Shown here one piece after another: positions 2,587 to 25,049 of a DNA stretch of 25,049 nt. The stretch's first letter is position 1; each line of letters starts with the position of its first letter. The notes below the pieces were generated by a model. That model had not been told where the DNA came from, did not search any database, and saw nothing but the letters and a program-made list of their open reading frames with translations. This stretch comes from a virus. Taxonomy: Duplodnaviria; Caudoviricetes. Position numbers and translations under genes: made by a program. The stretch is taken from positions 1 to 25,049 of IMG/VR virus record IMGVR_UViG_3300005512_000306; one strand, written 5' to 3'.

Positions 2587-2948
2587 AGATAGCAGTGATT
2601 GGAAGTAGAAGTATTAGAGACCCAAAGGTACTCGACATAATAGACAAGTACCTTTCAGTCTACAAAGATAAGAACTATACTATCCTTATGGGTGATGCCA
2701 AAGGAGTAGATGAGCTTACTAAGCACTACGCAGACGCACACAATCTAGACGTAGTTAAGTTCTTACCCTACCATTTACTAGATAACAAAACAGAGTTTGA
2801 TTCTAGACATTTCTTTATTAGAACTAAACAGTTAGTAGACAATGCTGATAGAGTCCTAGCAATATGGGATACTAAAAGTAATGGTACAGAATACGCAATT
2901 AAATATTCACAGAAACAAGGTAAACCTACAACTATTATAAAGTTATAA
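2583..2948 (+). CDS. SLOG-superfamily (YspA/DUF2493-like) protein
   Basis: MKIAVIGSR, GDAKGVD and R..LVDNADRVLAIWDTKSNGT match the SLOG Rossmannoid pattern (GSR; GxAxGxD; WDGxSxGT). Confidence 0.8.
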   Translation: MKIAVIGSRSIRDPKVLDIIDKYLSVYKDKNYTILMGDAKGVDELTKHYADAHNLDVVKFLPYHLLDNKTEFDSRHFFIRTKQLVDNADRVLAIWDTKSNGTEYAIKYSQKQGKPTTIIKL

Positions 2949-3927
2949 GATAGTCAGCTTCTCTTTTTCTTCTACTATCATATCTATCACCAAAATTTTT
3001 AAGTTCTGTTTCAACAGCATCCCAATTACCTTCAGTTATAGCTTTCCAAAACTTAGGAGTTTTAGTAGCTAAGTCTCCATATTGAAAACCAACAGAAACA
3101 ATAACAGTTTGTTGTTGTCTAGATAAGTCTGAAAACTTTTTACCTGTAGTTTTTTCATAGCTTTTAATTATTTTATTTGATTCTTTTTGTTTAATAGTTT
3201 TATCTATTAATTGTTGTTCTTCTTTAGTTATTGTTAATGGCTTTTCTTTTAATTTTTTATAAGCTTCTTCTTTAGTTAATCCTAAATAAGGACTAAATTT
3301 ATCTTGTAATTCTTGTGGAAAATCTTTTAAGTCCTCTGCATTACGTTGACCTAAGTCAAATCCTGTAGCTATAGTAACACCTGAATTAGAGTTTTTAGGG
3401 TCAGGTACATAACCTTCTAGTTTAGTTCCTTCTTGTTGTCCAATAAATTCCCAATCTATTTCAGTAGCTTTAGGCTCTTCCATAAACTTATGTAATTCTT
3501 GAGAGCGTTCATTAAGTTCTTCTCCTGTATTATAAATAGGAAACTTACCTGCTTCTATGTCTTTTTGCCAGTAGTTATAAGCTTCTTCTTCTGACATAAT
3601 CTTTTTTGTTTCTCTGTTATATCCTGGAACTGCTACAAATTTATTATCAGGTGTTTTAATACCAATACTATATACAGTAGTTACAGAACCATCTTCATTA
3701 ATAAGCTCCTTACCTTGTTTAACTGTATCAGTATGGTAATTAAGTATTTCTTGTTCTTGTGGGGTTACTGACTCTTGTTTTGATAACTCCATGTAATTAG
3801 GGGTATCATTAGGATTAGCTGTACCTAAAGGAGGAGGAGTTACTGACTCTTGTTGTGTAGCTTTTTTTTCTTCTTTACCCCATTTAAATACATCAAAAGT
3901 ATCTAAAAAATCAAGATTAATCGGCAT
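2935..3927 (-). CDS. Modular protein with C-terminal pesticin-type (T4-lysozyme-like) muramidase domain; likely virion-associated peptidoglycan hydrolase
   Basis: IDWEFIGQQEG...GYVP...SNSGVTIATGFDLGQRN and RRKREADYL. Start moved from 3957 to ATG 3927 (GGAG upstream, shorter overlap). Last gene of the internal-protein block. Confidence 0.8.
   Translation of the reverse strand: MPINLDFLDTFDVFKWGKEEKKATQQESVTPPPLGTANPNDTPNYMELSKQESVTPQEQEILNYHTDTVKQGKELINEDGSVTTVYSIGIKTPDNKFVAVPGYNRETKKIMSEEEAYNYWQKDIEAGKFPIYNTGEELNERSQELHKFMEEPKATEIDWEFIGQQEGTKLEGYVPDPKNSNSGVTIATGFDLGQRNAEDLKDFPQELQDKFSPYLGLTKEEAYKKLKEKPLTITKEEQQLIDKTIKQKESNKIIKSYEKTTGKKFSDLSRQQQTVIVSVGFQYGDLATKTPKFWKAITEGNWDAVETELKNFGDRYDSRRKREADYLITL
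3761..3854. repeat. In-frame direct repeat, 18/19 bp, 75 bp period
   Basis: ggggttactgactcttgtt (3761-3779) and ggagttactgactcttgtt (3836-3854); both encode QESVTP. Confidence 0.85.
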
Positions 3928-5695
3928 CAGTAACAAGCTCCAGATTATTAAGTTCATCTTTTAGTATCCGTTCTGCCATTTCAATAGGGTCAGTCCCTTC
4001 CATCATAGCTCTAATTTTAATATATAGGTTAGCTCTTTGAAGATTAGCTTCCATTGCTGGAGGTAATGCATCAGGGCTAGTTAAACGTCCTGTATTTTTA
4101 TCTAGTATAATATTGTAGTCAGCATCTTGGCTTTCTCTTTGAAATACAGCCATAGTATATTGTCTAAACTCACCTAAAGACTTTATAATAGAAGATTTAA
4201 AATCAGGATTACTATAAAAATGTTTAAAGACTTCAGGTTTTAATTGAGATAAAGCAGTTAATTGTAAATCATATCCTTTTAATTTAGTAGCAGATTTACT
4301 ATTAAAATCTTGAGCATGTATATTATTTAATGTAGCACTAACTAAATTAATATCACCAGGCTGAGAAGAAGTATCTGCTTTTCTAATAGCTTGTTCTACT
4401 ACTACACCCCAATCAGGGTCATTAATAACATCAACTTCAGTAGCTGAATAAGAAGTATTTTTAGGTTCAGACATAGCTTTAGCATACACTTGTAATTCTT
4501 TTCTAAAGACTTCTTCTAAGTCTTGACTTAAAGCTCCTGCTCCTTTTAATTTAGACAAGGTATCAGCAAGACCATTTAAAGTTTTTTGAGCAAGTTCAGC
4601 ATTTCCAAACTGCATCATAAATTTAGTATCTAAATCTGTTTTAACAATGGAAGCTACATTTTTTTTATATTTTTCTAAACCTTCTAAACTTAAATCACTT
4701 ATCATTTCTTTACGAAATAATTCAAAAGTAGCATTCATAGTTGTATTAAAAGATTTAACATCTTCTTTATCTTGAGGCAATTCATCATACATTTCTGCTA
4801 CAGCTGTTTCAAATCCAGCAATTAATTCTCTAGCTGCTAATACTTTTGAATTGTAATCAGGGTAATTAGTATTATCAAGAAGAATAGCTTTTACTCCTTG
4901 AGTAATTTCAGTATGTAGCATTTCTTTTATGTTAGCTGTACCTCCTGCATCTTTCCATATAGCATAAGTTTCTATTTTAGATAAGCCTTCAGAGCTTTCT
5001 AATAAAAATTTAGCTCGTTCATACTTACTTGATTTACTTTTATAAAAATCATAAGCTACTTCTAGTTTATCTCTAGGTAAATCATAGGCACTACCTTCAA
5101 TAAAGGGGTCAATAAATTCTACCTTTTGTTTATATTCTTCTAAAGCTATTTTTTGTGCAGTTTCTTGAGCTTTAATTTGATAAGCGTAAAGGTCATTTGT
5201 TCCTAATTGATTTGTAGTTTGTGCATATCTACTTACAATTTCATCTTGTGCCCACATATTGTTATTAACTAATTTTTGAATTTCAGTTTTGTTTCTAATC
5301 ATACTTTCATAAGGATTATAAATTCCTTGAGCTTCCCCTTTAGAAAGAGTACTAGTAATAGTATCAACTCTATCTAAAATTTTAGCACGAGCATCTCCTT
5401 CAAGACCAGGTAATTCATTTTGCAAAGCAGTTCGCTCTGATATTAATAAATTTCTACCATCAGGACTATTAGCTAAAGCTTCTTGATAGTGGTCATAAGC
5501 AAGGGCATTAGCTTCTTTAGTTACTTTATTTTTTTCTAATTGTTCATAATTACCTAGCCCAAGCATAGCTCCACCCGCTAAAGTAGTAATCAAAGAATCG
5601 TCTATAGCCCCAGATTTATCTACAACACCAGGTTGTACTGTTAATCCAGGATATAGCTTTTCCATTTTAGTAGTTTCAAAGTCTGATTTCGCCAT
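3917..5695 (-). CDS. Putative internal virion (ejection) protein
   Basis: 592-aa, helical-looking protein in the block after the tail nozzle. Function inferred from position only. Confidence 0.55.
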   Translation of the reverse strand: MAKSDFETTKMEKLYPGLTVQPGVVDKSGAIDDSLITTLAGGAMLGLGNYEQLEKNKVTKEANALAYDHYQEALANSPDGRNLLISERTALQNELPGLEGDARAKILDRVDTITSTLSKGEAQGIYNPYESMIRNKTEIQKLVNNNMWAQDEIVSRYAQTTNQLGTNDLYAYQIKAQETAQKIALEEYKQKVEFIDPFIEGSAYDLPRDKLEVAYDFYKSKSSKYERAKFLLESSEGLSKIETYAIWKDAGGTANIKEMLHTEITQGVKAILLDNTNYPDYNSKVLAARELIAGFETAVAEMYDELPQDKEDVKSFNTTMNATFELFRKEMISDLSLEGLEKYKKNVASIVKTDLDTKFMMQFGNAELAQKTLNGLADTLSKLKGAGALSQDLEEVFRKELQVYAKAMSEPKNTSYSATEVDVINDPDWGVVVEQAIRKADTSSQPGDINLVSATLNNIHAQDFNSKSATKLKGYDLQLTALSQLKPEVFKHFYSNPDFKSSIIKSLGEFRQYTMAVFQRESQDADYNIILDKNTGRLTSPDALPPAMEANLQRANLYIKIRAMMEGTDPIEMAERILKDELNNLELVTDAD

Positions 5696-14542: not shown

Positions 14543-15079
14543 TTATTTAGTTGGTCGTTTTAATAATTGTTGAGCCATACGAGTGGCTTCATGAATACGT
14601 CTTGGTTGCTTAATATCTCTAGCTTTTCTTGCAGCTTCTTTACGTTGATTATCTTTATATTTTTGAGTAGCGGGATAATAAGCATTTCCCGGTCCTGTAC
14701 CTACTTTTAAATCTGGTTTATTAGGAATGTTAGGAGTAGTACTTTGTGTATAAGGGTCTATTTTTTTACCGCCAACTCCTTTAAGAATACCAGGAACTTC
14801 AGGGGTTTTATAAGAGGAGCCTCCAATATTTCCAGGAGTAACTTTTAATGCTCCTTTAGGTGAAATAGATTCTCTATTCTTAAACATTCCTCCAGTAGTA
14901 TCTGTTGGTTTATAAGTATCAAATCCAGAAACAGTTTTCTTTTTTGATAAGTTTTTTCTGTTTTGTTCAATTTTTTTAGCTCGTTGTTTAGCTCTTTGTT
15001 CATCTATGATACGACCAAAAAAACCCTCTGGACCAAAAATTCCTTTAGGATTATATCCTTTTTTGTTTCTGTCAGCCAT
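14543..15079 (-). CDS. Basic, Gly/Pro/Lys-rich low-complexity protein
   Basis: 178 aa; TAATG coupling to the upstream mini-ORF; AGGA upstream. Confidence 0.7.
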   Translation of the reverse strand: MADRNKKGYNPKGIFGPEGFFGRIIDEQRAKQRAKKIEQNRKNLSKKKTVSGFDTYKPTDTTGGMFKNRESISPKGALKVTPGNIGGSSYKTPEVPGILKGVGGKKIDPYTQSTTPNIPNKPDLKVGTGPGNAYYPATQKYKDNQRKEAARKARDIKQPRRIHEATRMAQQLLKRPTK

Positions 15080-15216
15080 TACTTTTTCCTTTTAACTGGA
15101 GTTTTCTTTTTATTATATGAATGTTTTTTACCACAAGCCATAGTCTTTTTCCTTTTCTTTTTACCATACTGTTGACCTTCTATAAAAGCACCAGTATTGC
15201 TAGTTAACATACTCAT
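15079..15216 (-). CDS. 45-aa mini-protein: copy of the MCP N-terminus plus Lys/Arg-rich tail
   Basis: Hand translation MSMLTSNTGAFIEGQQYGKKKRKKTMACGKKHSYNKKKTPVKRKK. TAATG overlaps at both ends (15216 and 15079). Not in the ORF track. Confidence 0.8.
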   Translation of the reverse strand: MSMLTSNTGAFIEGQQYGKKKRKKTMACGKKHSYNKKKTPVKRKK

Positions 15217-15989
15217 TAATAGTTAGGACCTTTTTTAGATATTGTAGGTCTGCCATAATTAGGATATTTAATCCCACGTTCTAGTTTCCATGCATCTTGA
15301 CTCATTCTACGTTTATGAGAAACAGAAGTTTGTTCTGCTTTTTGATTAGCTATTTGTTTAAGAGTAATAAAAGAAGTTGATTTAGCTTCTGCTAAAAAAT
15401 AACTAAACATTTGTACAGGTAAATCAGCAATAAAGTTATCACTTAATGTAAATATAACAGCACGTTTACCAAAAGCTTGAGATTTAGATTTTTGTAAATG
15501 TGTATCTGTTGTTTGAATATAATTATCAAATACTACATACTCTTCATCAAAAGATGTATAGTATTCAGGAGCTCTATCTTTATAGATATTAAGTTTAATT
15601 CCTTGTAAACTATCTACTACTTGAACTTTACTATCTGTACTATTTCTGACATCTACATGATTAATAAACTCTTCAGGAGTTAAGTATTTAATTTCAGTAT
15701 ATTGATGTTTAGCTAACTCTGTTTTTCTTACATCATACTTAATCCAATGTACATTTTCAATTGTATCTGGTATTTTCATATGAGTAGGTCTAGTATCATT
15801 AGCACTGTCTAATTGAAATAACTCATTAAAATGTGGATAGTCTCTACCATTAACAATATTAAAATAAGTAGTTTTAATTATTTGAGCTACTTGCAAAGAC
15901 TCTACTGAATCATTAATGCTATTGACTTCATCTGAATCCATATCAGATAAGATATCTTGAGCCATTTCAAGTAGTGTCATCTTAGCCAT
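15216..15989 (-). CDS. Head-tail adaptor / tail tubular protein A analogue
   Basis: 257 aa; MTLLEMAQDILSDMDSDEVNSI N-terminus resembles T7 gp11-like adaptors; position downstream of the capsid genes. Confidence 0.72.
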   Translation of the reverse strand: MAKMTLLEMAQDILSDMDSDEVNSINDSVESLQVAQIIKTTYFNIVNGRDYPHFNELFQLDSANDTRPTHMKIPDTIENVHWIKYDVRKTELAKHQYTEIKYLTPEEFINHVDVRNSTDSKVQVVDSLQGIKLNIYKDRAPEYYTSFDEEYVVFDNYIQTTDTHLQKSKSQAFGKRAVIFTLSDNFIADLPVQMFSYFLAEAKSTSFITLKQIANQKAEQTSVSHKRRMSQDAWKLERGIKYPNYGRPTISKKGPNY

Positions 15990-16560: not shown

Positions 16561-16590
16561 AAAAGGAGTGGGGTCCGAAGACCCCTATCC
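16561..16590 (-). terminator. Rho-independent terminator with cUUCGg tetraloop
   Basis: Minus strand reads GGATAGGGGTC-TTCG-GACCCCACTCC-TTTT, immediately after the stop of 16591-17049. Confidence 0.85.
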
Positions 16591-17060: not shown

Positions 17061-18041
17061 TTAATAGTTAGATGGATGAGTTAAAATAACACCAAGAGTG
17101 TCAACACGTTGAGCACCTAAGCCATAACGTGATGTTACTTGATACTTGTCTGCACGTTCTTCGTTGTCTCTCCAGCCTTCTGTCTGAGGAGCTCGTCTCC
17201 AAGCATGCATAATTGGCTTACATGTATCATCTGCTACGCACATGAAGATGTTAGCCTTATCACCAACAGCTGCTGTTTCAGATGTTAAACCATATGAAGA
17301 AGCATTAATAGCTTCAGAAGCTGTTAATGTAGGTAGGAAGTTAGAAGTGTAAACATCCCAACCAAATACGTTTCTTACGAAACGATGGTCACGAGCAAAA
17401 CCTTCTGTTACCATACCTTCAAACATTGGGTTGTTTGATACGTTAACTAAGTTGGTTAAGCTATTTAATGTAGCTTCAACAACAGGGTCAACAATAGCAA
17501 TACGACCACCAGCTGGTGAGTTTGCTTTATCAAATGCAAGCTTCATAGAAATGAAGTCTTCCAATGTAATAGTTCTAGCATTAGATGCTGCAGAACCTAC
17601 CCAACGGTGTGGTCGACCATTAACTAAGTTAAGATTTGCACCTGTTTGAGCTGCATTAGCTACGCTTAGGAAACGTGTTTCATGGTTTTCACCAAGAGCA
17701 CGTGTTGATTCCATAGCACGCATAGCCATTAAAGTATCAACTTGAGAACCATCTTCACGAAGGTCATCAGAAACTTTCCATGCATCACCAACATAGTCAG
17801 TGATAGTAAGAGTTAATGTACCTGTGTCGATAGGACTATAGTTGAGAGGAGTATCCTCAGCTGCATCTTGAATTGTTACAGTACCTACTGTCTTGATGTT
17901 TAAAGTTGTACCTGAACCGAAGTCTGTTACATCTCTCCACATACCTTCAGGAAGTAGATAGTCATGTAAGTTCTCAAGAATAAACTGTGAATACTGTTGT
18001 GCTTCAATAAAAGCACTAGTATTACTAGTCAATTGTGACAT
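17061..18041 (-). CDS. Major capsid protein
   Basis: 326 aa following portal and scaffold; GTTLNIKTVG, RIAIVDP, VFGWDVYTSNFLP and YGLGAQR match podovirus HK97-fold MCP patterns; GAGGA RBS. Confidence 0.88.
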   Translation of the reverse strand: MSQLTSNTSAFIEAQQYSQFILENLHDYLLPEGMWRDVTDFGSGTTLNIKTVGTVTIQDAAEDTPLNYSPIDTGTLTLTITDYVGDAWKVSDDLREDGSQVDTLMAMRAMESTRALGENHETRFLSVANAAQTGANLNLVNGRPHRWVGSAASNARTITLEDFISMKLAFDKANSPAGGRIAIVDPVVEATLNSLTNLVNVSNNPMFEGMVTEGFARDHRFVRNVFGWDVYTSNFLPTLTASEAINASSYGLTSETAAVGDKANIFMCVADDTCKPIMHAWRRAPQTEGWRDNEERADKYQVTSRYGLGAQRVDTLGVILTHPSNY

Positions 18042-18051
18042 AATTTATCCT

Positions 18052-18768
18052 CTACGCTTGTTGTTTAATTTTCTCACCAGCTGCTCTCCAAGCATCAACT
18101 AAATCTTTAGTAGACTTATTTTTACCTACTCGAGCTGAAAACTCTCCTGTAGGTTTAGTTTGTGCTAAAGATTCAGTATTTACAGAACCAGAAGACTTAG
18201 CTACATTAGATGGAGCTGAGTCAGTAAGCCCTGCTAGTCGTAAGACTACACTAGGTGAACTAGTAGCGAGACTGTTAAGTTGTTGAGTTGACATACCTAA
18301 CTCACCAGCAAGTTTGTTATAAACAGTTTCTGCTTGAGACCCATACTTACCCTGAAATTTTTGAGCTACAGAGTCAGCATTTTGTTTAGCAGTCTTGGTC
18401 TGTTCATTACGCTGGAGTGTTTGATTTACCAAACTCATAATAGCGTCTTCGTTTAACTCAACCCCTTGAGTGGTGTTCTCTGCGGGTTGTCTAGTTTCAG
18501 ACTTTAATTCATCAAGAAGTTCTTGTGTAGTTTTGCGTTTAGTTAGTTCTTCTTTCAACTGCGACATCTCTTCCTCTAGGGTTTTGATGTGCTGTTGAGC
18601 ATGAGGAACTGACCTAAGTGCTTCCACTGCATTAGCATACTTCTTACCCTCACCAACTAAGTCTTGAGCTTCTGTCGGAATTTCAAATAGTTTTGCTTGG
18701 GTATCTGTTTGTTGAGTTTCTTGGGTATTTGACTCAACAGGTTGTTCTGTTATTGTTTCTTCTGTCAT
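18052..18768 (-). CDS. Capsid scaffolding protein
   Basis: 238 aa; acidic Q/T/E-rich N-terminus, coiled coil (HIKTLEEEMSQLKEEL), between portal and MCP; GGAG RBS. Confidence 0.78.
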   Translation of the reverse strand: MTEETITEQPVESNTQETQQTDTQAKLFEIPTEAQDLVGEGKKYANAVEALRSVPHAQQHIKTLEEEMSQLKEELTKRKTTQELLDELKSETRQPAENTTQGVELNEDAIMSLVNQTLQRNEQTKTAKQNADSVAQKFQGKYGSQAETVYNKLAGELGMSTQQLNSLATSSPSVVLRLAGLTDSAPSNVAKSSGSVNTESLAQTKPTGEFSARVGKNKSTKDLVDAWRAAGEKIKQQA

Positions 18769-18995: not shown

Positions 18996-19024
18996 ATTAT
19001 ACCATATAATTAACGAAATGTCAA
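18996..19024 (-). promoter_or_regulatory. Consensus sigma70 promoter with extended -10
   Basis: Minus strand TTGACA-tttcgttaattatatgg (17 nt, ending TGn)-TATAAT in the 39-nt gap after the portal gene. Confidence 0.88.
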
Positions 19025-22347: not shown

Positions 22348-22479
22348 TTATTTTTTCTTTTTCTTTTTGCCCCAGTTGTTTTGCATATCTTTATATGCTT
22401 TAGCACTTATAGTAGATTTCTTTTTACTTCTACTAGTGCCTGCTTTTTTTCTTTTATTTATATTTTCTACTAAACTCAT
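22348..22479 (-). CDS. 43-aa highly basic protein
   Basis: Hand translation MSLVENINKRKKAGTSRSKKKSTISAKAYKDMQNNWGKKKKKK (16 K/R); TAATG coupling upstream. Confidence 0.8.
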   Translation of the reverse strand: MSLVENINKRKKAGTSRSKKKSTISAKAYKDMQNNWGKKKKKK

Positions 22480-22751
22480 TACCATTTCACCTTATCAGCC
22501 CAATAAGCTGCACTCATTTTACCTTTAGATATATTCTTAGCATGTCTAGCTTTAAATGATTTACGTCTAGCTTTTTGTTTAGCTGTGCTAGGATTTTTAC
22601 CAGCACCACTAACACCTTGTTGTCCAAACCTAATAATCTTTTCTTTACCATTAGCACAAGCTTTAACTACATGTGATTTAGTTTTATGCCCTGATGTACG
22701 TTTAGGTTTATTACATGGCATATCTTTTTTACTTACAGATTTAGTAGCCAT
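22479..22751 (-). CDS. Basic phage hypothetical protein (90 aa)
   Basis: IRFGQQG...ARRKSFKARH...SAAYWADKVKW pattern, which I recall from a widespread aquatic-phage family of unknown function; TAATG coupling. Confidence 0.78.
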   Translation of the reverse strand: MATKSVSKKDMPCNKPKRTSGHKTKSHVVKACANGKEKIIRFGQQGVSGAGKNPSTAKQKARRKSFKARHAKNISKGKMSAAYWADKVKW

Positions 22752-23299: not shown

Positions 23300-23473
23300 T
23301 TAAATATGTAGAACACTCATAACTACAGCTACAGCAATAGCACCAAAGCCTGTTAGAATTCCCCAAATTAATTTCCAAAGCATTTGTTCAATACGGTCTA
23401 ATCTATGATGTATTGTGTCATATCTTTCTGCACAAAGTTTTTCGTGAGCTAACAGTTCTTCGCGTGGTGACAT
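23300..23473 (-). CDS. 57-aa XhlA-like membrane protein (lysis-associated)
   Basis: Hand translation MSPREELLAHEKLCAERYDTIHHRLDRIEQMLWKLIWGILTGFGAIAVAVVMSVLHI: short coiled coil plus C-terminal TM helix; GAGGAGG upstream; TAATG coupling. Confidence 0.75.
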   Translation of the reverse strand: MSPREELLAHEKLCAERYDTIHHRLDRIEQMLWKLIWGILTGFGAIAVAVVMSVLHI

Positions 23474-23640
23474 TAATTATCAGCCTCCTCTGGTGTATTA
23501 CCTTCACTCAACCATTGTAAGTATGTTGGGTTAGTGTCATCTACTGGAAAAGATGTAAAACTACCATTACCATTATCTATAATAATATGTTCTTGAGTTT
23601 CGCCTTTAATACTTTTTGTTGTTAATATTTTATATGTCAT
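23473..23640 (-). CDS. Small tail-fibre-associated (chaperone-like) protein
   Basis: FP.D..N..YLQWLSEGNTPEEAD C-terminus; start at ATG 23640 (GGAG upstream) rather than 23655. Confidence 0.7.
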   Translation of the reverse strand: MTYKILTTKSIKGETQEHIIIDNGNGSFTSFPVDDTNPTYLQWLSEGNTPEEADN

Positions 23641-23641
23641 G

Positions 23642-24760
23642 TTATAGCTCCGCATTAAACGCTATGTAATTAGTACTACCATTTGGCAATACAGCATACA
23701 TTTTTTGTGCTGTTAATCCTGTAGATGTAAAGTTCATAGTACAAGATGTTGTTCCAGATTCTGCTATTCCAACAGCACTAAATGCTGTTACTGCTCCTCC
23801 AAGCCACCAACCTAACCCAGAATAATCAATAGAAGAAGCATTACTTCTCATAGTAACTGGAAATGGTACATGACCATACATATTAGTCGTATTAGCAGCC
23901 ATTGCCCAAGCAACCCAGTTATTGCTTGAAGTTGAATTCCATTTATAATAATACCTTTGACATCTTGCTAACTCTATATCATAAGGTCTGTGCTCAAAGG
24001 GTGTGGCTGTATCCCCTACTTCTAGTTGTACGGCTGTAATGTTCATATAGTTAGAAGTAGTATCGGCTAAATTAGATACTCCAACAGCTCTGTTTGCACT
24101 TGTAGCTGCTCCCCATGATGTTTGTAATGTTCCTGATGTGTAAGTAGAGCCAGCACCCAACCAGAAATATAAGTATAAAGCACCACTATTATTATTAGCT
24201 AATGTTCCAGTAGTGTCGCCTGCATAAGTAATGGTTTTCTTTTCCCAAGTATCTGTCGTGTCTATTGTAAAAGATTTATTAATATGTCTTGCGTTAGTTC
24301 CATCAAACAATTCAGCAATGTATAGACCTGTTTTGTTTGATTTTACCCAAAACGATAGAGTAACTGATTCAGCATTAGCTGTACCTTTTTTAAGTTGTTG
24401 TAAATTTTGACCTTCAATACCTTGTGATAATAATAAAAAATCACCTGTTGCTGGACTTGCATCTGCTGTGGTACATAACATTTTTACGCTATTTGCAAAA
24501 CCTTGTCCACCAGGCACATCAGTATCTTGACTCATTGTCCAAGTACCTAGAGTTTGAGGTGAAAAAGCAAATCTATCAACACTATGATAACCACCAGAAG
24601 TAATACTGCTAGTACTTGTACCTCTCTGAGCCACCTGCATCGCACCATTGATGATAATGTTTTTTGTGCCTAGTGGTACTGTAGATGCAAAGTCAGCAGT
24701 AACAATACTGCCATCGGTTATCTTGTCTATGCCTGTATCGCCATTGATTATGACTGCCAT
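23642..24760 (-). CDS. Tail fibre / receptor-binding-type protein
   Basis: KNIIINGAMQVAQRG...DRF...TLSFWVKS...QLEVGDTATPFEHRPYDIELARCQRYY...FPVTMR...NAEL; carbohydrate-binding-like fibre domain common in aquatic phages. Confidence 0.72.
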   Translation of the reverse strand: MAVIINGDTGIDKITDGSIVTADFASTVPLGTKNIIINGAMQVAQRGTSTSSITSGGYHSVDRFAFSPQTLGTWTMSQDTDVPGGQGFANSVKMLCTTADASPATGDFLLLSQGIEGQNLQQLKKGTANAESVTLSFWVKSNKTGLYIAELFDGTNARHINKSFTIDTTDTWEKKTITYAGDTTGTLANNNSGALYLYFWLGAGSTYTSGTLQTSWGAATSANRAVGVSNLADTTSNYMNITAVQLEVGDTATPFEHRPYDIELARCQRYYYKWNSTSSNNWVAWAMAANTTNMYGHVPFPVTMRSNASSIDYSGLGWWLGGAVTAFSAVGIAESGTTSCTMNFTSTGLTAQKMYAVLPNGSTNYIAFNAEL

Positions 24761-24918
24761 TATTCTGCCTCCTCTGGTTCGTTTCCTTCAGCTTTCCACG
24801 CTAAAAATTCTTGGTAGTCTTTATTTGCTTCGTCTGCTGGAATTAAAGCATTATCAGATAGTCTAATAATTGCTCCAGTTTCTTCGTTTGTTATTGCATC
24901 TTTATATTTTTTATACAT
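24760..24918 (-). CDS. Small tail-fibre-associated (chaperone-like) protein, paralogue of 23473-23640
   Basis: Hand translation [52 protein letters not shown]; GGAG 8 nt upstream; TAATG coupling downstream. Confidence 0.78.
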
Positions 24919-24920
24919 AA

Positions 24921-25049
24921 TCATAACTCCGCATCAACTTTCCAGTTAGTAATATAATTTCCATCTCCTGTTTTTGTAAAACTAAAATCACTTATAGATG
25001 CAGTACCTGCTGCTCCAGTTCCACCAACAACAGTAACAGTTGGAGATGC
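24921..25049 (-). CDS. Partial (C-terminal end) tail-fibre-type protein
   Basis: Hand translation [42 protein letters not shown]; ends in DAEL, like NAEL of 23642-24760. Confidence 0.7.

Follow-up and report, generated by a model that had tools for sequence, protein, structure and literature searches.

Why should a tailed phage carry, directly behind a gene for its head-tail adaptor, a second and separate copy of the first residues of its own major capsid protein (MCP)? The question is raised by a stretch of viral DNA of 25,049 nucleotides (positions 1 to 25,049 of IMG/VR record IMGVR_UViG_3300005512_000306; Duplodnaviria, Caudoviricetes), hereafter called the window. The mini-gene (15079..15216, minus strand) encodes 45 amino acids, of which residues 1-17 (15166..15216, minus strand) copy residues 1-17 of the MCP (17991..18041, minus strand), i.e. 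the N-terminal arm (N-arm) and the start of a predicted N-terminal helix. The first-pass annotation had reported 14 of 17 identical amino acids, 39 of 51 identical nucleotides and four synonymous codon differences between copy and template, and all of these were recovered; three further codons differ non-synonymously. The likeness ends sharply on both sides of the 51 nucleotides, and the second-best 17-mer in the six frames of the window has only 6 of 17 identities. The mini-protein and the MCP form the stronger of only two repeat pairs between proteins of the window (blastp-short, E 2e-10).

The rest of the mini-protein (15082..15165, minus strand) consists of a Gly and a lysine-rich tail, together 28 amino acids with 15 Lys or Arg and, as reported, no Asp or Glu; across the family its length and sequence vary and its charge stays constant. 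The tail had been called protamine-like. It is basic, but protamines are Arg-rich and this tail is rich in lysine (13 Lys and 2 Arg; K:R 1460:194 in the family), so the label is a loose one. The TAATG overlaps described for both ends of the mini-gene are present in the sequence. An internal ATG preceded by AGGA, suggested as a possible start for a peptide of 20 amino acids, is also there, but the start is not conserved (35 of 79 loci have a Met within tail residues 1-12) and the peptide was rejected.

The mini-gene is a real gene under selection. An assembly artefact can be dismissed, since many contigs contain the mini-gene and a 924-nt contig of another sequencing run, with 9 differences, spans it. 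It had been described as unannotated, which is correct in the sense that it is uncharacterised but not in the sense that it had escaped gene calling, the exact protein having been called on 19 contigs and its orthologues being listed as hypothetical proteins in phages MEP401 and MEP402. No Pfam, PHROG or PDB family covers the mini-protein. Pfam gave three weak hits only (E~0.05), one of 35 family members had any match in PHROGs (phrog_3405, E 0.08), and the PDB sequences gave a single match (E 0.76). The best match in the ESM Atlas (0.83) was regarded as a lead only.

PHROG matches in the window included terminase, portal, MCP, adaptor, tail appendage, holin and reductase. The MCP (17061..18041, minus strand; phrog_267, PF25209) has a profile match to the MCP of cyanophage A4 (E 1e-12) and is of the T7-like HK97-fold type. 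The adaptor gene (15216..15989, minus strand; phrog_7592, called adaptor in the MEP401/402 annotation) overlaps the mini-gene start with its stop codon, and the scaffold protein gene (18052..18768, minus strand; phrog_7931) was named from its position and the MEP401/402 annotation. Among 117 phage records with an MCP match, the closest MCPs were those of ctOsX528 (79 % identity) and of the OM43 phages MEP402 and MEP401 (75-76 %), all others being below 60 %. The adaptor is 58 % identical to those of MEP401 and MEP402, and the other named Zobellviridae isolates have at most 56 % identity in the MCP and 45 % in the adaptor. The gene order (terminase, portal, a small gene, scaffold, MCP, two genes, adaptor, nozzle) is that of MEP401/402, which are filed under Zobellviridae and for which a new subfamily has been proposed (PMC10580990). 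Judged by these similarities, the source phage is a MEP401-type (OM43-phage-like) zobellvirus; the assignment rests on MCP, adaptor and head-gene order, the 25-kb record holding only the reductase gene of the MEP401-type replication arm.

Relatives of the locus were located with adaptor and MCP queries, because the alignment of the mini-protein was too variable for a locus search. The first adaptor scan gave 262 confirmed stretches, the best 80 of which were taken; 77 contained a complete mini-gene, L015 was cut by the contig end, L070 stopped 7 nt past the adaptor and L033 was without the gene. All scans pooled contained 300 loci, 160 of them distinct; 151 of the distinct loci continue for 150 nt or more past the adaptor. 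In 146 of these 151 a mini-gene follows the adaptor, identified in 142 by pattern and in four (L408, L426, L427 and L428) by eye, so that the second copy does recur at this place in relatives; it is missing from L033, L083, L098, L226 and L258. The start codon is ATG in 104 and TTG in 38 of the mini-genes; in 126 of 142 it lies at -1 or -4 and so overlaps the stop of the adaptor gene. Complete proteins of the family have 30-74 amino acids. A profile of 35 members, searched against 1.84 billion representatives, found 43 clusters at E <= 0.001, all of 30-72 amino acids and every one with the two-part build. Expression as an adaptor fusion by frameshift or readthrough was considered and rejected, the start offsets (-14, -7, -4, -1, 2, 3, 8, 28, 42 and 328) being in different frames and L006 and L007 holding a whole open reading frame between the two genes.

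A profile search was also made of 18 whole records. Two hits, the mini-gene and the MCP start, were obtained in MEP402, L013 and L096, and a single hit, the MCP start alone, in 12 (L033, L083, L098, L099, L226, L258, CW02, PA11, ICP2, Pecta, 521E56-1 and KZY1); L106, P12053L and ICBM2 gave no profile hit. The records of L226, L258 and L106 are 63-77 % complete. MCP queries added 101 loci, seven of them without a usable MCP start, and among the other 94 a copy was found only in L201 (MCP 78 % identical, within the clade); about 69 of the remaining 93 extend 300 nt past the adaptor, and the sensitivity of this search was low, the copy of L201 itself scoring within background. In an adaptor tree of 63 rows all carriers fell into one clade (SH-aLRT 100), with five state changes in total, and the non-carriers L033, L226 and L258 were placed among the carriers. 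The mini-gene has been lost at least three times within the clade, a lineage of aquatic phages, and is therefore both clade-specific and dispensable, i.e. an accessory gene. Other Zobellviridae tested have nearly the same MCP arm and no copy of it.

The codon differences had been taken as a hint of selection at the protein level, and such selection was found. In the two bins of closest relatives pN/pS was 0.29 and 0.23 for the arm copy, 0.24 and 0.23 for the MCP arm and 0.15 and 0.25 for the adaptor, and 0.45-0.51 for the first eight tail codons, as uncorrected values from non-independent pairs binned by adaptor identity; these bins replaced bins by the motif's own identity, which were circular. 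All 56 distinct sequences keep the frame of the mini-gene open, compared with 0-13 for the other five frames. At shared residues the codons were identical to those of the phage's own MCP gene in 306 of 536 cases (57 %), compared with 52.5 % expected and 59 % for the MCP genes of other phages. There is no codon excess with the own MCP gene, so the duplication is old and has been kept at the protein level; recent gene conversion was rejected on the same figures. The tails have 15-57 amino acids, and the net charge of the whole protein ranges from +8 to +19 in the family. Asp and Glu make up 1.6 % of the tail residues compared with 10.5 % expected from base composition, an approximately six-fold depletion, and Lys 38 % compared with 21 %; the DNA of the tails is 53 % A.

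The residues kept in the copy are those that are near-invariant in the MCP arm, as would be expected if both fitted one kind of site. Among 66 distinct copies, T5 was found in 52, N7 in 57, T8 in 61, I12 in 56 and Q16 in 47, and F11 and Y17 in all 66, the pattern used to find the copies having admitted only Phe or Tyr at positions 11 and 17. In the arms of 91 capsid proteins the counts were 90 for N7, 84 for F11, 87 for I12, 84 for Q16, 84 for Y17 and 91 for S18. The copy ends at a conserved Tyr17-Gly18, with Gly in 59 of 66 copies where the MCP has its invariant Ser18. Glu13, kept in 84 of 91 MCPs, is kept in 9 of 66 copies and is mostly Asn or His in the others. This pattern would correspond to a copy that keeps one binding face, drops an acidic contact and ends where the subunit's own helix would go on.

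The suggestion that the copy co-varies with the MCP of its own phage was not borne out beyond a trend. A permutation of own-versus-other scores without correction for kinship gave p 5e-5, which was set aside because kin share both genes. With independent pairs on three trees, the small set gave 9 positive and 1 negative, 7 and 2, and 7 and 3 pairs (one-sided p 0.011, 0.09 and 0.17, respectively), and the larger set 10 and 5, 11 and 5, and 9 and 3 (one-sided p 0.15, 0.11 and 0.07, respectively), none of the three trees being significant in the larger set. For tests of co-variation at single positions the pairs were too few. With phylogeny controlled, tracking of the own capsid arm by the mini-protein is a consistent trend and not a demonstration.

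The position of the mini-gene relative to the head-gene transcription signals bears on how much of its product may be made. A consensus sigma-70-type promoter (18996..19024, minus strand; 12 of 12 positions) precedes a 74-aa gene, the scaffold gene and the MCP gene, and a terminator-like UUCG hairpin with a U-rich run (16570..16585, minus strand) follows the 152-aa post-MCP gene; the two bracket these four genes, with the mini-gene downstream of the hairpin. A similar promoter was found 700-1200 nt before the MCP gene in 94 of 98 loci, and within 500 nt before the mini-gene in none of 144. A hairpin (z <= -2) was present after the post-MCP gene in 67 of 72 relatives and after the mini-gene, which served as control, in 8 of 69; this count superseded an uncontrolled count of a terminator pattern (51 of 90). 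The conservation of these signals around the scaffold and capsid genes suggests that the host polymerase drives head-gene expression. Since the mini-gene lies outside this unit, it would be expressed with the neck genes and not with the capsid, and its position suggests a low copy number, for which gene position is only a rough guide. A Shine-Dalgarno-like word, by a loose pattern and with no control, precedes 77 of 81 starts. Translation of the mini-gene is presumed. Of the contigs from RNA libraries, X15 touches the region at low depth and X16 and X19 cover only ~16.5-18.1 kb; no listed RNA piece spans the mini-gene, and such contigs cannot show strand, level or absence.

The model of the MCP obtained with AlphaFold had a pLDDT of 51 at first and of 72 with a deeper alignment, and in a Foldseek search its matches were P-SCSP1u (top), A4 and Kp7, followed by PhiM1 and T7. 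A helix is predicted at residues 11-23. Residues 1-28 have a pLDDT below 50, so that the model does not fix the site of the arm in this capsid. The MCP is acidic (net -15). In P-SCSP1u, the N-arms are described as binding to E-loops and P-domains in adjacent capsomers. One penton is replaced by the portal, which together with the adaptor is surrounded at this vertex by five hexons through their N-arms, P-domains and E-loops (PMC10575957). Antiparallel N-arms are reported to make most of the penton-hexon contacts in R4C (PMC10276861). In P74-26, rearranged N-arms make up for the missing penton together with a portal vertex protein, Lys2 of which reaches into the DNA ring (PMC12407722).

We propose, with a probability of roughly 0.45, that the mini-protein is a minor head protein, the arm copy of which fills N-arm sites, most probably the empty ones of the portal vertex, while its lysine tail lies on nearby DNA. 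The arm copy would dock in the N-arm sites that become vacant where the portal replaces a penton, and the tail would continue from where the absent pentamer subunit would have the start of its body, heading for the portal opening with its surrounding DNA ring, and would there bind packed DNA. The proposal fits the place of the gene outside the capsid unit and, by analogy, the N-arm contacts of the closest solved capsid fold. Against it, residues 11-17 are predicted to start the subunit's own N-terminal helix, the pocket of which may be occupied at the portal. The lack of significant co-variation with the own MCP arm in the larger set of pairs, and the low confidence of the modelled arm, also count against it. 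From the Zobellviridae that have a similar arm and no copy, and from the losses in L033, L226 and L258, it follows that portal vertices can be built without the mini-protein. A place for the protein in the virion, in this or either of two other ways considered below, is quite probable.

The first of these other ways is that the scaffold, or the procapsid interior, recognises the arm copy as an address and so brings the polycation into the head as loose cargo, where it would ease DNA packing or be ejected with the genome, much like a protein with a T4 capsid-targeting sequence. We consider this unlikely, though it has several points in its favour: the copy spans the start of the predicted N-helix, a helix that in T7 is reported to contact the scaffold; the MCP is acidic; and a tail free to vary between 15 and 57 amino acids suits a charge carrier. 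In T4, N-terminal regions of the capsid protein are inside the prohead before expansion, in the course of which N-arms and gp23 N-fists go from the inside to the outer surface (PMC9958956), and short N-terminal tags carry basic proteins into the head (PMC9026906). A label for the scaffold is harder to reconcile with a gene that is coupled to a neck gene and is not part of the scaffold-MCP unit, with the fact that T5, N7 and T8, in the distal arm before the helix, are retained, and with the lack of a leader or protease site before the copy.

A quite improbable reading is that the mini-protein acts outside the virion as a regulator or decoy, the free arm competing with MCP subunits or binding a host factor that recognises the MCP. 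It would then pace assembly, prevent aberrant shells or blunt a defence, attached by its basic tail to DNA or membrane. An accessory, repeatedly lost gene next to a hypervariable insertion site could be of this type, and the loss of Glu13 from most copies is what a capping decoy might show. The gene nevertheless has a fixed, clade-wide place in the neck-gene cluster, with overlapping start and stop codons, and a decoy against a defence should either follow its own MCP closely or evolve fast, whereas purifying selection and weak tracking were observed. No evidence turned up for satellite hijacking, also raised in the first-pass annotation.

That the protein lines the whole shell is very improbable. 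As such a liner, one molecule per capsid subunit would occupy the groove vacated by the N-arm on expansion and neutralise DNA like the microvirus J/VP8 proteins, with which it shares the anchor-plus-polycation anatomy (PMC11281519), and the acidic MCP would suit this. Hundreds of copies would be needed, yet the gene lies downstream of a conserved hairpin and has no promoter of its own, and the net charge of the MCP is similar with the gene (mean -14.7) and without it (-7 to -20). That the mini-gene is a leftover of a partial MCP duplication with no function, or came from recent gene conversion or an assembly artefact, would agree with the losses in some lineages and with the A-rich tail DNA, which favours lysine, but is already contradicted by the open frame, the low pN/pS, the codon identities and the depletion of Asp and Glu, and has practically no chance of being correct.

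It had been stated that no equivalent of the mini-gene was described. This holds in so far as the nearest counterpart, gp61.1 of T4 (NP_049649.1, 54 amino acids), is likewise annotated only as hypothetical; it does not hold for the design, which is the same. T4 gp61.1 is a small stand-alone gene product in which a copy of the N-terminal arm of the phage's own MCP (17 of 37 residues identical to residues 57-93 of gp23, E 6e-9) is followed by a lysine run. It differs in copying an internal stretch of the gp23 precursor, where the copy in the mini-protein starts at or near MCP residue 1, in having a tail of KKKK and acidic residues (glutamates) in place of a strongly basic one, and in the location of its gene, which adjoins a primase gene and not the adaptor gene of a podovirus. 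An N-fist has been described for gp23 (PMC9958956). No leader or copied protease site precedes the arm of the mini-protein, with at most 10 residues before the conserved Phe. No homology between gp61.1 and the mini-protein was detectable (E 0.25), which points to independent invention. The mini-gene is a clade-wide, selected gene of unusual design with an apparently independent counterpart in T4.

True orthologues are present in the cultured OM43 phages, namely MEP401 gp37 (WBF78090.1) and MEP402 gp39 (WBF78159.1), with the same position, motif and basic tail; they differ in having 55 amino acids and a TTG start. No discussion of them was found in the available text of PMC10580990, the main text of which contains neither 'mass spectrometry' nor 'hypothetical', and the supplements may list both. 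No description of the family, or of an N-arm mimic, was found in the open literature, to which the search was confined, with subscription journals and supplements outside it.

The mini-protein can be likened to three groups of head proteins and, by its sequence, appears to lack a defining property of each. Portal vertex proteins (P74-26 Oshimavirus PVP gp34 and crAss001 gp57) are accessory and make up for a missing penton (PMC12407722; PMC10172136), and in the PVP an N-arm joins the MCP sheet and Lys2 contacts the DNA ring (PMC12407722). The PVP has a globular T7 gp2-like domain, however, and no MCP copy is described for it, whereas the mini-proteins, of 30-74 amino acids and mostly low-complexity tail, lack this domain and have no notable match in PDB or Pfam. 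The T4 internal proteins IPI-III with their capsid-targeting sequence (CTS) are small and basic, carry a short N-terminal tag, are non-essential and vary among relatives (PMC9026906). The CTS is a propeptide of 10 residues that is cleaved from the mature protein behind it, and each of these proteins is present in about 300 copies, whereas the tag of the mini-protein is the MCP's own arm, with no cleavage site evident and only a basic tail to follow; among the head genes scanned there was no match to a protease. The J/VP8 proteins of Microviridae are of ~5 kDa and combine a hydrophobic capsid anchor with an Arg/Lys-rich DNA-binding part (PMC11281519). They belong to ssDNA viruses with another capsid, and have a C-terminal anchor and no coat-protein copy; the mini-protein also has a polycation, but its anchor-like part is N-terminal and its phage has a portal, a terminase and an HK97-fold capsid. 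Patience/Adjutor gp4, another small accessory protein (54-102 amino acids), is unfolded when free and reinforces an HK97-fold shell; it fills split hexamers across the shell, and neither an N-arm copy nor a polycation is described for it in the available parts of PMC11965321. Nor was an MCP-arm copy found in the accessible accounts of Patience gp4 (PMC11965321), A1002 (PMC13730344) and crAss001 (PMC10172136), or in that of the two A4 cement proteins, both on the outer surface (PMC12002296).

The zobellvirus mini-proteins and T4 gp61.1 could be independent inventions of one solution, and we tentatively suggest, with the odds somewhat against it, that stand-alone 'arm rivets' are an unrecognised and repeatedly invented class of head protein in tailed phages. 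An HK97-fold N-arm would have been duplicated, cut where the subunit body would begin and provided with a polycation, and the product would fill empty arm sites at special vertices and tie them to the packaged DNA. The 17-mer would in that case be a portable capsid-addressing tag; should the arm copy serve for docking, cargo could be placed with this short handle at a defined position in an HK97-fold shell. Two open questions are how capsids compensate for the contacts lost when a pentamer gives way to the portal, and which roles small basic proteins have in the heads of tailed phages. For both, the mini-gene family offers a minimal, testable case, with two cultured carriers (MEP401 and MEP402), natural losses and an unrelated T4 gene of the same design. 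The family is also an example of structural genes of 30-70 amino acids that PHROGs and Pfam miss, and lysine-rich tails such as these would be missed by tryptic proteomics.

The site directly after the mini-gene is an insertion hotspot, with extra open reading frames in 34 of 70 loci. In the window it holds a variable, basic ORF of 178 amino acids coupled to the mini-gene stop (14543..15079, minus strand), one of the interchangeable inserts found there. The hotspot ORFs are very diverse, mostly of low complexity, lysine-rich and of ~60-200 amino acids, and share a few short, mostly C-terminal motifs of five types, each found in 4-12 of 109 loci. Their products may be additional cargo proteins, disordered and tagged at an end. 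The resemblance of these C-terminal motifs to the C-terminus of the scaffold, judged by eye, is weak. A Gly-Tyr C-terminus was present on 30 of 112 distinct complete mini-proteins, and some of the downstream inserts end likewise, a hint that small basic genes exchange their tails. The ORF between adaptor and mini-gene in L006 (5774-6100), also present at the same site in L007, encodes 109 amino acids with an alternating beta-strand pattern and has a weak Pfam match (PF13557, E 0.005, below the cut-off).

Other small genes were noted in the window and its relatives. Two small basic ORFs lie just upstream of the terminase gene on the minus strand (22348-22485, phrog_25774, net +14; 22479-22751, phrog_7595, net +22), with no capsid-arm copy in either. 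The zobellvirus Vibrio phage 521E56-1 (L088, 1622-2045) has two lysine-rich small ORFs between terminase and portal and no arm copy. Zobellvirus-like head modules were also found in contigs binned to Woesearchaeota, Saccharibacteria, Flavobacteria and others (L201-L221), which are probably mis-binned phage contigs. In the window, two small paralogous proteins (23473-23655 and 24760-24924, minus strand; 48 % identity over 27 amino acids, E 0.001) flank a gene of 372 amino acids (23642-24760). A two-part protein of 340 amino acids is encoded at 2935-3957 (minus strand); its C-terminal half matches phrog_24780 and presumably resembles the pesticin-type muramidases.
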